Part shown: positions 20,378 through 60,483 of the stretch, piece after piece
Position numbering within the stretch: the first letter of the stretch is position 1
Layout: each line of letters opens with the position of its first letter
Origin: Escherichia coli
Lineage (GTDB): Bacteria; Pseudomonadota; Gammaproteobacteria; Enterobacterales; Enterobacteriaceae
Reading direction: 5' to 3' (one strand)
DNA: 64,000 nucleotides
Assembly (NCBI RefSeq): GCF_013122565.1
Contig: NZ_CP053258.1
Position numbers and translations under genes: made by a program
Notes under the pieces: model-generated
The model's database searches: none
What the model was told of the DNA's origin: nothing
The model's input: the letters and a program-made list of their open reading frames with translations, nothing else

Positions 20378-20412
20378 TTCGGAAAAAGAAAAGGCGGCAT
20401 TGCTGCCGCCTT
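20378..20412 (-). terminator. Rho-independent terminator after mukB
   Basis: AAGGCGGCA-ttgc-TGCCGCCTT hairpin; on the mukB strand followed by UUUUCUUUUUCC. Confidence 0.6.
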
Positions 20413-40938: not shown

Positions 40939-41025
40939 GTGAATCATCCGTTGATTAATCATATATAAATATTATGTATCAACAACTTACATTGACAAGC
41001 GACGCTACCATTAATCAAAATGACT

Positions 41026-41058
41026 CACAAGGTCCGAAAAAAAACGCCGGCAATGTGC
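41026..41058 (-). terminator. Rho-independent terminator after aroA
   Basis: Near-perfect hairpin (A)CGCCGGCA-atg-TGCCGACG(T) followed on aroA strand by U8 (A8 run 41026..41033 on + strand). Confidence 0.55.
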
Positions 41059-41106
41059 CGACGTTTTGATAAAGAAAGATTTGGCTATTTATTGCCCGTT
41101 GTTCAT

Positions 41107-42390
41107 TCAGGCTGCCTGGCTAATCCGCGCCAGCTGCTCGAAATAATCCGGAAATGTTTTGGCCGTACATTTGGGATCAAGAATCGTCACTGGTGTATCT
41201 GACAACGCCACCAGCGAGAAACACATCGCCATCCGGTGATCATTGTATGTCGCGATCTCGGCAAAGTTCAGTTTTTCCGGTGGAGTGATACGAATGTAAT
41301 CGTGCCCCTCTGCTACTTCTGCACCGACTTTACGCAGTTCTGTTGCCATCGCAAACAGGCGATCGGTCTCTTTAACACGCCAGTTATAGATATTGCGCAG
41401 CGTGGTGGTGCCTTTTGCAAATAACGCCGCGGTGGCAATGGTCATCGCCGCATCGGGAATATGGTTCATATCCATATCAATAGCGTTCAGTTCACCACGC
41501 GTGCAGGAAATATAATCATCGCCCCAGCAAATGGTCGCGCCCATTTTTTCCAGCACATCAGCAAAGCGAATATCACCCTGCATACTGTTGCGTCCAATGC
41601 CGGTCACTTTTACAGTGCCGCCTTTGATTGCTGCTGCTGCCAGAAAGTAAGAAGCGGAAGATGCATCGCCTTCGACCAAATAAGTACCCGGAGACTGATA
41701 AGACTGCCCGCCTTTAACGACAAATTGTTGATAGTGCTGATTTTCAATTTCAACACCAAACGTCTTCATCAGATTGAGTGTGATGTCGATATAAGGTTTA
41801 GAAACCAGATCGCCTTTAATACGAATCACCGTATCTTCCGGCGCAAGAGGCGCAGTCATTAATAGTGCGGTGAGGAACTGGCTGGAAACAGAGCCATCAA
41901 CGTCAACGTTGCCGCCAGTAAAGCCGCCCTGTAAACGCAATGGCGGATAATTTTCTTGTTCCAGGTAAGTGATCTTCGCCCCGCCCAGGCGCAGCGCATC
42001 CACCAGATGACCAATCGGGCGCTCTTTCATACGCGGCTCACCGGTCAGCACAATATCATTGCTACCCAGACAAAGAGCTGCCGCCAGCGGACGCATTGCC
42101 GTTCCGGCGTTACCGAGGAACAACTCCAGGGCGCTTTTTGCGTGTAATGGACCGCCGTTACCGATAATTTCGCAACGCGTACGATCGGCTGAAAGCGTAT
42201 AGCTTACCCCTAACGCTGCTAATGCATTCAGCATATGGCGCACGTCATCGCTATCCAGCAGATTGGTTAATACTGTTTTGCCGTGTGCTAATGCCGCCAG
42301 CAATAAAGCGCGGTTAGAAACGCTCTTGGAACCGGGCAGATTAATAGTGCCATCGACACGAGCGATGGGTTGTAACGTCAGGGATTCCAT
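41107..42390 (-). CDS. aroA: 3-phosphoshikimate 1-carboxyvinyltransferase (EPSP synthase)
   Basis: 427-aa [38 protein letters not shown]…. Confidence 0.98.
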
Positions 42391-42406
42391 GAACTCAACT
42401 CTCTAC

Positions 42407-42441
42407 AACAGAAATAAAAACCCCACAGGCTGGCTGTGGGG
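42407..42441 (-). terminator. Intercistronic terminator/attenuator hairpin between serC and aroA
   Basis: CCCCACAG-gctgg-CTGTGGGG stem followed on coding strand by UUUUUAUUUCUGUU, ending 17 nt before aroA ATG. Confidence 0.55.
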
Positions 42442-42460
42442 ATTAAGCAAAATTTCGGCA

Positions 42461-43549
42461 TTAGCCGTGACGGCGTTCGAACTCAACCATGAAGTCTGTC
42501 AGCGCTTTAACGCCTTCCAGTGGCATGGCGTTATAAATGGACGCGCGCATTCCGCCGACCACACGGTGACCTTTCAGTGCATGAAGGCCAGCAGCAAAAG
42601 ACTCTTCAAGGAACAATTTGTCAAGCGCACTGTCTGCCAACTGGAAGGGTACGTTCATCCGCGAACGGTTAGGTTTCGCCACGTCGTTGCGGTAGAAATC
42701 GCTGTTATCAATCACCCCATACAGCAGTTCTGCTTTTTGCTGATTGATTTTATCCATTGCACCTACACCGCCGTTCGCTTTCAGCCATTTAAAGACCAGA
42801 CCAGACAGATACCAGGCAAATGTCGGTGGCGTGTTAAACATGGAGTCGTTATCGTTGAGGATGGAATAATCCAGAATCGACGGACACGCGATATTCGCTT
42901 TGCCCAGCAAATCTTCACGAACGATGACGATTGTCAGGCCTGCCGGGCCGATATTTTTCTGCGCGCCAGCGTAAATCACACCATAACGGTTAACATCGAT
43001 TGGACGAGAAAGAATGGTTGAAGAGAAGTCGGCGGCAACCACCACATCTTTGCCGAAGTCTGGCGTTTCGTCGATGGCGATACCGTCGATGGTTTCATTC
43101 GGGCAGTAATGCATATAAGCAGCATTATCAGAGAGTTGCCATTCACGCATTGGCTTAACCGCGCGCAGACCATCAACAGTCACTTTGGCGTCAAAGACAT
43201 TAGGCGTGCAGTATTTTTTCGCTTCTTTAATGGCACTTGCCGCCCAGTAACCGGCATCAACATAATCTGCGGTGGTTTTATCACCGAGAATATTCAGCGG
43301 TACCGCAGCAAACTGACCGCGACCACCGCCATGGCAGAATAATACCTTGTAGTTGGAGGGGACATTAAGAAGATCGCGAAAATCCTTCTCGGCTTCCTCT
43401 GCAACCTGAATGAACTCTTTGCCACGGTGACTCACTTCCATCACCGACGTACCAAGACCGTTCCAGTCGCGCAGTTCCTGTTGAGCCTGTTTAAGCACCT
43501 CTGCCGGTAGCATTGCCGGACCAGAACTAAAATTGAAGATTTGAGCCAT
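42461..43549 (-). CDS. serC: Phosphoserine aminotransferase
   Basis: 362-aa [36 protein letters not shown]…. Confidence 0.98.
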
Positions 43550-43747
43550 TTCCCCTCACCACGTTGCGTTGCTATTAACCCGCGGTCAATCGATTGCGAC
43601 CACAGGTAATACATTATTCCTGTGGCTATCGGTTTTATCATTCAGTGACACACATCGCAATGAGTAAAACCGTTGAGGGCAAAAATGTGGCTTGCATCAC
43701 ACAAAAGAATCTCTCGGATTATTAGCAAAAAGCCGATGTTTTTACTG

Positions 43748-44440
43748 TCAGGTCACCCGTTTTGCCCGACTTGCCTTCGTCCATTCTGGATTTGCACAGC
43801 GCGGACATAATTGTTTTTCCCCCGCGTTCATATGAATGATTTCACTACAACGAATGCAGGCATAGTCCGCCGACTCCGGCACCACTTTGTAACGCTGCGT
43901 ACAATCACTGGGTAAAATAAGTAAACCCGGTTTCACCTTGTCATCTTCAAAGAAATAGACACTGATTTGCCCGTTGGTTTCGAGAATTGCCAGACGTACT
44001 TGCCCCAACTGCTCTACACCACGCAATCGTAGCTCCATAAAGAACTCAAATTCCGTCATGTTGGAGTTATTGAGTTTCGACCAGGCCAGCTCGCCATCTT
44101 CAATAATAACAACCGGCTTGCCTTCCAGAAGATCTTCCAGTTTTTCACTGTGCGCCATCAACCACATTACCAGGCGGTATAACAACGCCAGAGTCATAAA
44201 GACGATAAGTACCGGCACCATCGGCACATCATCATAAAACGCCACATCTCCCGCCGCTGAACCCAGCGTCAGAATGATTAACACTTCAAAAAGCGACATC
44301 TGCCGCACTCCGCGTCGTCCGGTCATTTTGAGGAACAAAAAGACCAGTACAAAGGTATAAAGACTACGTAGTGCAACTTCGCCAAGGAAATCAAAAGGCA
44401 CTTTATCAAATGCCATACGGTGGAGATCGAACGCCTTCAT
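43748..44440 (-). CDS. ycaP: DUF421-family inner membrane protein YcaP
   Basis: 230-aa ORF with N-terminal TM helices and C-terminal CxxC…CxxC (CIRCSEIIH…CPRCANP). Confidence 0.85.
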   Translation of the reverse strand: MKAFDLHRMAFDKVPFDFLGEVALRSLYTFVLVFLFLKMTGRRGVRQMSLFEVLIILTLGSAAGDVAFYDDVPMVPVLIVFMTLALLYRLVMWLMAHSEKLEDLLEGKPVVIIEDGELAWSKLNNSNMTEFEFFMELRLRGVEQLGQVRLAILETNGQISVYFFEDDKVKPGLLILPSDCTQRYKVVPESADYACIRCSEIIHMNAGEKQLCPRCANPEWTKASRAKRVT

Positions 44441-56272: not shown

Positions 56273-56299
56273 AAGAGAACCGGGGCCGAAACCCCGGTT
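56268..56299 (-). terminator. Rho-independent terminator after dmsC (in convergent gap with ycaC)
   Basis: AACCGGGG-ccgaaa-CCCCGGTT hairpin; U-rich tract follows on dmsC strand. Confidence 0.55.
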
Positions 56300-60245: not shown

Positions 60246-60415
60246 AATGGCTCACTCAAGCTTGCTCACGATTGATTCCAGTAACAAACCGTATTGTGTA
60301 ATTATTTCTATAGCAGTTCGCTATATAGGCTTGTATACATCGAATGATTTGAAAATCAAAGAGATAGGTAGATTTTCACTCGAAAGTAGTATTACGTGTA
60401 AGTGAGGAGTAATTA

Positions 60416-60429
60416 TTGTTCGGTATCAA
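60416..60429 (-). promoter_or_regulatory. FNR box of the dmsABC promoter
   Basis: On dmsA strand reads TTGAT-accg-AACAA (TTGAT-N4-ATCAA family), about 175 nt upstream of dmsA ATG. Confidence 0.5.
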
Positions 60430-60430
60430 A

Positions 60431-60462
60431 GGGAGACAAAAAAAGCGCCCGCAGGCGCTTTT
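60431..60462 (-). terminator. Rho-independent terminator after serS
   Basis: AAAGCGCC-cgca-GGCGCTTT hairpin; on serS strand followed by UUUUUUGUCUCC. Confidence 0.65.
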
Positions 60463-60483
60463 TAGATTCAGAAAAATTGGGTA

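Follow-up and report, generated by a model that had tools for sequence, protein, structure and literature searches.

The probably leaky intrinsic terminator between serC and aroA of Escherichia coli is conserved in stem, U-run and spacing across the Enterobacteriaceae

In E. coli, partial terminators inside operons, such as the rplL-rpoB attenuator and the rpsU-dnaG terminator, fix the level of one gene relative to another. The locus analyzed here has its closest described counterpart in K-12, whose serC(pdxF)-aroA operon carries an internal Rho-independent terminator associated with the work of Duncan and Coggins in 1986 (Biochem J 234:49) and of Man, Pease and Winkler in 1997 (J Bacteriol 179:3458), two papers that PMC11878033 cites. 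It is the same site; the leaky serC-aroA terminator is thus already known. Duncan and Coggins are said to have sequenced the operon. In the abstract of Man and colleagues, 80–90% of serC transcripts are reportedly single-gene, likely owing to Rho-independent termination between serC and aroA, and the cotranscripts reportedly end at a second Rho-independent terminator past aroA. RNase T2 protection in the same study is said to have been consistent with 3' ends in the U-tract, and the serC-only and serC-aroA transcripts are said to shift in parallel, with regulation in the conditions examined exerted at the promoter through Lrp activation and CRP-cAMP repression. Full-text literature searches on serC-aroA termination, attenuation or readthrough returned no account of the site; both the 1986 and the 1997 papers lay outside that search. 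Compared with the K-12 terminator, the site described here occupies the same locus, has an identical spacer and follows the same order of promoter, serC, hairpin with U-tract, aroA and second terminator, with no detectable difference; the present analysis adds an 80-genome comparison, covariation and an asymmetry between the two strands.

Among mapped E. coli terminators, 264 of 1,774 lie inside operons and allow partial readthrough, and the internal terminator of sdhCDAB-sucABCD is a further intra-operon partial terminator (Conway et al. 2014, PMC4161252). As at rplL-rpoB, rpsU-dnaG and sdh-suc, a hairpin followed by a U-run lies between the cotranscribed genes serC and aroA; aroA, the downstream gene, would be expressed only by readthrough, and serC at the higher level. 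Unlike at the other intra-operon terminators, the two genes belong to different pathways, serine plus pyridoxal-phosphate synthesis on one side and the shikimate pathway on the other, and, unlike at sdh-suc, no secondary promoter follows the terminator.

The window, meaning the whole 64,000-nucleotide stretch of E. coli DNA that was analyzed (contig NZ_CP053258.1 of RefSeq assembly GCF_013122565.1), carries both genes on its minus strand. The first gene of the operon, serC (42461..43549), encodes phosphoserine/phosphohydroxythreonine aminotransferase, as identified from the list of open reading frames, a match to NCBIfam NF003764 (E = 2e-166) and the E. coli annotation, and ends in a UAA stop codon at 42463..42461. 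The second, aroA (41107..42390), encodes 3-phosphoshikimate 1-carboxyvinyltransferase (EPSP synthase), assigned likewise from the open reading frame, a match to TIGR01356 (E = 3.7e-139) and annotation. Approximately 6 kb around the two genes is 98.5% identical to and collinear with E. coli K-12 MG1655, and the 70-nt intercistronic spacer (42391..42460, minus strand) is identical at 70 of 70 positions to K-12 958742..958811, where a K-12 coordinate is 1,001,202 minus the window coordinate. Because the spacers are identical, experiments done in K-12 apply to this locus. The junction is also nearly universal in the species: a 261-nt query spanning the site was matched over at least 80% of its length in 5,422 of 5,426 complete E. 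coli genomes, with a best match of at least 95% identity in all records except one, and with serC and aroA annotated beneath. This query, which includes the serC and aroA flanks as well as the hairpin, has a median of one place per genome and is little informative on dispersed copies of the 21-nt palindrome itself. Five matches to the junction fall on plasmid-labelled records, and no genome among the 5,426 has more than two places; such plasmid or extra matches could be F-prime-like captures, duplications or assembly labels.

A candidate for the operon promoter is a sigma-70-like match, ATGATA-17-AATAAT (43613..43641, minus strand), which agrees with the consensus at 9 of 12 positions and precedes the serC ATG by ~64 nt. 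Further upstream, a 230-aa open reading frame (43748..44440, minus strand) has no NCBIfam match at E <= 0.001; its K-12 counterpart is annotated as ycaP, a DUF421 domain protein. At the other end, a terminator-like hairpin, AACGUCGGCA-CAU-UGCCGGCGUU (41035..41065, minus strand, -14.3 kcal/mol), follows the aroA stop codon by ~41 nt, and the last two U's of UGCCGGCGUU open a run of eight U's. An A-run precedes this distal hairpin and a T8 run follows it, so that by sequence the hairpin looks like a bidirectional terminator; a first site scan had given only the plus-strand reading of it (41048..41060), and the stronger minus-strand reading came from a stricter scan, whose thresholds are given below. 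The adjacency of serC and aroA has been described as the remnant of an old gyrA-serC-...-aroA-cmk-rpsA-himD linkage group whose intervening genes were lost in enterics (PMC1173090, where EPSP synthase is named aroF).

Read along the sense strand, the spacer has the order UGCCGAAAUUUUGCUUAAU-CCCCACAG-CCAGC-CUGUGGGG-UUUUUAUUUCUGUU-GUAGAGAGUUGAGUUC-AUG. The 5' arm of the stem, CCCCACAG (42441..42434, minus strand), starts 19 nt past the serC stop codon; it is followed by the loop CCAGC (42433..42429), whose sequence and length (3–7 nt) are free to vary between species, and by the 3' arm CUGUGGGG (42428..42421). Together they form a hairpin (42441..42421) of 8 bp, six of them G-C, with a 5-nt loop and a folding energy of -13.4 kcal/mol when folded alone. 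The U-tract UUUUUAUUUCUGUU (42420..42407, with its core UUUUUAUUU at 42420..42412) abuts the stem directly, such that the next 9 nt contain eight U's on the minus (sense) strand only. The stem itself is a perfect 8+8 palindrome that reads the same on both strands, and on the plus strand it is followed by AUUAAGCAAAA. Transcripts that carry serC alone are expected, from this arrangement, to have their 3' ends within the U-tract, which corresponds to K-12 958782..958795. Between the U-tract and the aroA ATG at 42390 lie 16 nt, GUAGAGAGUUGAGUUC, which include GAGAG (42399..42403, minus strand; positions -13 to -9 from the ATG), a likely Shine-Dalgarno sequence of aroA to judge from its position.

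A canonical intrinsic terminator combines a G+C-rich stem of ~5–14 bp, a loop of 3–8 nt and a U-rich tract of ~7–9 nt located directly 3' of the stem on the transcribed strand, and the serC-aroA spacer carries all of these. A preliminary description of this DNA had placed a strong hairpin and U-tract inside the serC-aroA operon, 17 nt before the aroA start, and had noted that the pair looks like a complete intrinsic terminator. The sequence is indeed there, on the minus strand, with 16 nt between tail and ATG, in agreement with the stated 17 nt, and the designation as a terminator is borne out by the 8-bp stem with its six G-C pairs, by the abutting U-run in the sense orientation and by conservation accompanied by covariation. 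The loop had been given as gctgg, which is correct for the plus strand; in the mRNA it reads CCAGC.

Terminator-like sites of this kind are strongly enriched in the window. The stricter scan, which demanded a stem of at least 7 bp with at least five G-C pairs, a loop of 3–8 nt and at least six T's in the following 8 nt, returned 12 sites on both strands of the 64 kb, against 0.4 ± 0.55 expected from 30 dinucleotide-preserving shuffles. The motif appears to mark gene or transcript ends in this genome, because the serC-aroA site and the 10 others for which an upstream open reading frame could be assigned lie 4–42 nt past the stop codon of a long frame. Within a scan of a 5.5-kb region, the serC-aroA site ranked first among the minus-strand terminator-like sites; its stability is ordinary for the window, at -13.4 kcal/mol within a range of -12.6 to -24.1 kcal/mol. 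What distinguishes it is the presence of a same-strand gene only 30 nt past the hairpin, compared with 61–307 nt, or no such gene at all, for the other sites of the window. Taken over its full 70 nt, the spacer has a modest folding z-score (-2.0), since the signal resides in the local hairpin and not in a global fold. A long-range helix pairing GCUUAAU with GUUGAGU around the hairpin, proposed by the single-sequence minimum-free-energy fold, was dropped as not conserved by RNAalifold. A second candidate for an intra-operon site, at 56298..56279 (minus strand), proved to be the ordinary terminator of dmsC facing the convergent gene ycaC.

Two other structures in the window were recorded alongside. 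A hairpin at 20391..20412, GGCGGCA-loop-UGCCGCC, scores as a terminator on both strands, follows on the minus strand the end of an open frame of 1,492 codons at a distance of 4 nt from its stop and is a probable bidirectional terminator on these features. The window's only Rfam match at gathering level is to the STnc130 sRNA family (60336..60470, plus strand, 138.8 bits), situated between serS and dmsA on the other strand from serS, where it overlaps the serS terminator hairpin, AAAGCGCC-UGCG-GGCGCUUU with its U-run (60461..60442, minus strand), 22 nt past the serS stop codon.

The element is retained throughout the family. Species-representative genomes were scanned with SerC, which yielded 80 loci from Enterobacteriaceae, covering genera that include Escherichia, Salmonella, Citrobacter, Enterobacter, Klebsiella/Raoultella, Kosakonia, Kluyvera, Lelliottia, Trabulsiella, Mangrovibacter and Franconibacter. 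In all 80, aroA lies downstream of serC, at a distance of 63–84 nt, or of 123 nt in one metagenome-assembled genome (L073). An uninterrupted hairpin of 8–11 bp with a directly adjoining T-rich tail is present in about 77 of the 80; two more loci (L030 and L049) retain the hairpin with one mismatch. The stems of L070 and L077, both perfect 9-bp helices, are in a different register. A MAFFT alignment of 80 rows was built from the window and 79 loci, with L073 excluded. The hairpin starts 12–22 nt past the serC stop codon in 79 of the 80 rows (median 17) and ends 29–35 nt before the aroA ATG in 78 of them (median 32). The tail is conserved as well: each of positions 1–5 is T in 69–80 of the 80 sequences, position 6 is A in 57, and the 9-nt tail holds seven or eight T's in 70 rows. 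The GAGA core of the putative aroA Shine-Dalgarno sequence occupies invariant alignment columns (G58 A59 G60 A61) and, given its position 9–13 nt upstream of the ATG, is probably the aroA ribosome-binding site.

Three loci depart from this pattern. The long spacer of 123 nt in L073 (Enterobacteriaceae UBA5654, L073:3590-3715) contains an extra upstream 12-bp hairpin, CUUCAGGUCGCA...UGCGGCCUGAAG, and its terminator stem has no directly adjoining T-run; L061 and L064 share a different stem, CCCGCGCC/GGCGCGGG, followed by a weak tail interrupted by C. To judge from these sequences, termination may be weaker or absent in the three lineages.

The stem changes in sequence between genera while its pairing is kept. 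In addition to CCCCACAG/CUGUGGGG, the arms occur as CCCCGCAG/CUGCGGGG, CCCCACGG/CCGUGGGG, CCCCAUGG/CCAUGGGG, CCCCGAAG/CUUCGGGG and CCCCUGUCG/CGGCAGGGG, besides the CCCGCGCC/GGCGCGGG pair already mentioned. Over the alignment, 91.8% of cells are paired, and double, compensatory changes occur at six of nine stem pairs, in 51 cells. The covariation score is 0.259, compared with 0.148 ± 0.008 in shuffled alignments (none of 500 reaches 0.259) and 0.03–0.13 in controls in which the partner columns were slid, and RNAalifold recovered the same stem independently. The wobble pairs are distributed asymmetrically, with 28 G·U cells on the sense strand and one A·C cell, the latter corresponding to a wobble on the other strand, which identifies the serC-sense RNA as the target of selection, as opposed to a palindrome in the DNA or an antisense RNA. 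The compensatory changes and the sense-strand G·U pairs are those of a structure maintained as RNA by selection, as befits an intrinsic terminator.

How aroA is expressed in spite of this terminator was approached from the sequence upstream of it. A consensus scan found no sigma-70-like site on the minus strand in 42391..43549, that is, in the spacer and all of serC, and the nearest such site to aroA is the 9/12 match ~64 nt upstream of the serC ATG. The 30 nt between the hairpin and the ATG would leave no room for a promoter and a leader. A promoter embedded near the 3' end of serC would be expected to lower synonymous variation there. The relative synonymous-codon entropy of serC, calculated over 81 sequences in windows of 15 codons (mean 0.67, sd 0.06), has no dip in the 3' half of the gene: the last twelve windows (start codons 337–348) range from 0.63 to 0.71, which gives no hint of a conserved regulatory element within that end of the gene. 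The sole marked dip in serC, 0.41–0.51, covers the first ~25 codons (43475..43549, minus strand), which fits a constraint on translation initiation and/or the reported GcvB pairing region (PMC11878033). Cotranscription of aroA with serC is documented (PMC11878033; PMC6883840); a pulse of GcvB, which acts on the serC 5' UTR, lowers aroA mRNA in the same way as serC mRNA and leaves an aroA translational fusion unrepressed (PMC11878033), and the authors of a serC deletion added aromatic compounds owing to expected effects on aroA (PMC6883840).

The downstream gene thus shares the strand of serC, lacks any visible promoter and is expressed from the upstream one, as is characteristic of a partial, readthrough terminator. 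Since only 30 nt separate the hairpin from aroA, the gene would be reached only by polymerases that read through the hairpin. Leakiness is deduced here from the need to express aroA and not from the motif, which by sequence looks as strong as the gene-end terminators of the window. In our assessment, the element is very probably a constitutive, leaky intra-operon intrinsic terminator that would yield more serC than serC-aroA mRNA, with predicted 3' ends in the U-tract.

A fixed leaky terminator would operate as follows. Transcription would begin upstream of serC. Once the spacer is transcribed, the emerging RNA would fold into the 8-bp G+C-rich hairpin at the moment when the U-tract, as a weak rU:dA hybrid, occupies the active site. 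Most complexes would then release an RNA that ends within the U-tract. This monocistronic serC mRNA would be shielded from 3' exonucleases by its 3' hairpin. A minority of polymerases would pass the further 16 nt into aroA and produce a bicistronic serC-aroA mRNA, which would end at the second hairpin and its U8 run past aroA, closing the operon. The predicted outcome is that a single promoter inherently yields more serC than aroA message, with the two genes sharing regulation at the promoter and differing in level.

The preliminary description had gone further and had proposed, from the lack of an obvious promoter in the 70-bp gap, that regulated partial readthrough sets the serC:aroA ratio. 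Its premise stands, with no sigma-70-like minus-strand site in either the spacer or serC, and partial readthrough into aroA appears obligatory in view of the 30-nt gap, the empty promoter scan, the flat synonymous profile and cotranscription. An excess of serC over aroA is likewise what the abstract of Man, Pease and Winkler is reported to describe. The word ‘regulated’, whether applied to the readthrough or to the ratio, found no such backing: there is no antiterminator pairing, the stem probability is 0.999, and neither a leader open reading frame nor an Rfam match accompanies the site. A fixed leaky terminator explains all observations.

In a conditionally regulated attenuator, the fraction of polymerases that pass would vary with a signal, for which candidates are transcription-translation coupling through the position of the ribosome at the serC stop codon, NusA/NusG, an sRNA with Hfq, or a metabolite. 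Like the leader-peptide attenuators of trp and pheA, the terminators of riboswitches and T-boxes, and protein-dependent antitermination systems, the serC-aroA site has an intrinsic terminator upstream of a gene. Sensor-controlled attenuators, however, need a mutually exclusive antiterminator and a sensing element, and the serC-aroA site has neither present or conserved; in addition, what precedes it is a translated gene of full length, not a leader. RNAalifold found the terminator stem only, with no conserved alternative pairing in the spacer, and in partition-function folding of the 80 sequences the stem of the window sequence has a pairing probability of 0.999 when 100 nt of upstream RNA are included, with a median over loci that is also 0.999. 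A leader open reading frame or an aptamer would not fit into the 19 nt that separate the serC stop codon from the stem, and a permissive Rfam scan of 41000..44000 gave no match at E <= 1. The parallel change of serC-only and serC-aroA transcripts across conditions, reportedly found in the 1997 study, likewise speaks against a signal that acts at the terminator.

More favorable to regulation is the position of the hairpin. At 19 nt past the serC stop codon here, and at 12–22 nt in all but one of the aligned rows, it lies inside the distance-sensitive range of less than 30 bp: the efficiency of model terminators depends strongly on stop-codon distances below ~30 bp, at which a trailing ribosome can interfere, and was ~0.8 at 18 bp in one series and ~0.12 at 17 bp in another (Li et al., PMC4824070). 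The conserved interruption of the U-tract (A at position 6 in 57 of 80 sequences) could similarly keep termination sub-maximal and tunable. The short distance is, however, unremarkable in this window, where 10 other sites lie at 4–42 nt. On balance, a conditionally regulated attenuator is unlikely. The specific version in which leakiness is set co-translationally, by a trailing ribosome that suppresses the hairpin 12–22 nt past the serC stop codon, is unlikely as well. If it were true, a larger share of polymerases would enter aroA under tight coupling of serC to translation and a smaller share when serC translation is slowed or repressed, as by GcvB or starvation, and the capacity of the shikimate pathway would be tied to translation status without a dedicated sensor.

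A different explanation for an excess of serC message places the role of the hairpin after transcription. Here, every polymerase would enter aroA, and a cut in the bicistronic RNA, made for instance by RNase E at its U-rich stretch, would let exonucleases trim back as far as the hairpin. The hairpin would serve chiefly to stabilise the mRNA 3' end or to mark where processing stops, leaving a stable serC and an unstable aroA message. REP elements are dispersed ~35-bp repeats of conserved sequence with no adjoining U-run. As with REP stabiliser hairpins such as that of malE-malF, a stable intercistronic hairpin can raise the upstream relative to the downstream mRNA; unlike in REP elements, the serC-aroA stem differs in sequence between genera with its pairing kept, and the U-run is conserved. 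Processing would draw on the downstream U/A-rich single-stranded UUUUUAUUUCUGUU, which resembles a sequence preferred by RNase E, and on the persistence of the stem where a good U-run is missing, as with the strong stem and weak U-tract of L061 and L064 and the absence of an adjoining T-run in L073; differential decay inside operons is, moreover, a recognised mechanism (PMC4161252). Against it, the T-run that abuts the stem, conserved at its first five positions in 69–80 of 80 sequences, is needed for termination and not for a barrier to exonucleases, and the canonical terminator geometry is shared with the gene-end sites of the window. We consider it improbable that stabilisation or processing is the main role, while noting that termination and 3' stabilisation are not mutually exclusive.

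A still weaker case can be made for a full-strength terminator that separates two transcription units, with aroA served by a hidden promoter located in serC or overlapping the hairpin. The terminator looks by sequence as strong as the gene-end terminators nearby, and weak or non-sigma-70 promoters would evade a consensus scan. Arguing against such a promoter are the lack of any promoter-like minus-strand site in 42391..43549, the mere 30 nt from hairpin to ATG and the unremarkable synonymous variation of the last 12 serC windows (0.63–0.71 against a mean of 0.67), which hold no conserved embedded element. Insertions in serC of Salmonella were also reportedly shown to be polar on aroA by Hoiseth and Stocker in 1985. 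The decrease of aroA mRNA together with serC mRNA under GcvB, with an aroA translational fusion unrepressed (PMC11878033), points the same way, and a hidden promoter is very improbable. A palindrome that acts as DNA, whether to bind a protein or as a REP-like repeat, with no role as RNA would account for the perfect 8+8 inverted repeat that is identical on both DNA strands, but was rejected as extremely improbable on the 28 G·U cells against one A·C, an asymmetry that selection for DNA symmetry would not give, and it also conflicts with a stem that varies in sequence while its pairing is kept and with a U-run found on one strand only.

Beyond confirmation, the fixed leaky terminator is of little consequence for the accepted picture of the operon, which it leaves unchanged, and it raises no new question. 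The comparative result provides a clean, textbook-style case of a conserved intra-operon terminator, in which stem, U-run and spacing are all kept across Enterobacteriaceae. The element is relevant to the deletion or replacement of serC, where polarity on aroA has to be considered, and to engineering for the production of aromatic amino acids. For the biology of the organism, it accounts for how a single promoter would give rise to unequal amounts of an enzyme of serine and vitamin B6 synthesis and an enzyme of the shikimate pathway.
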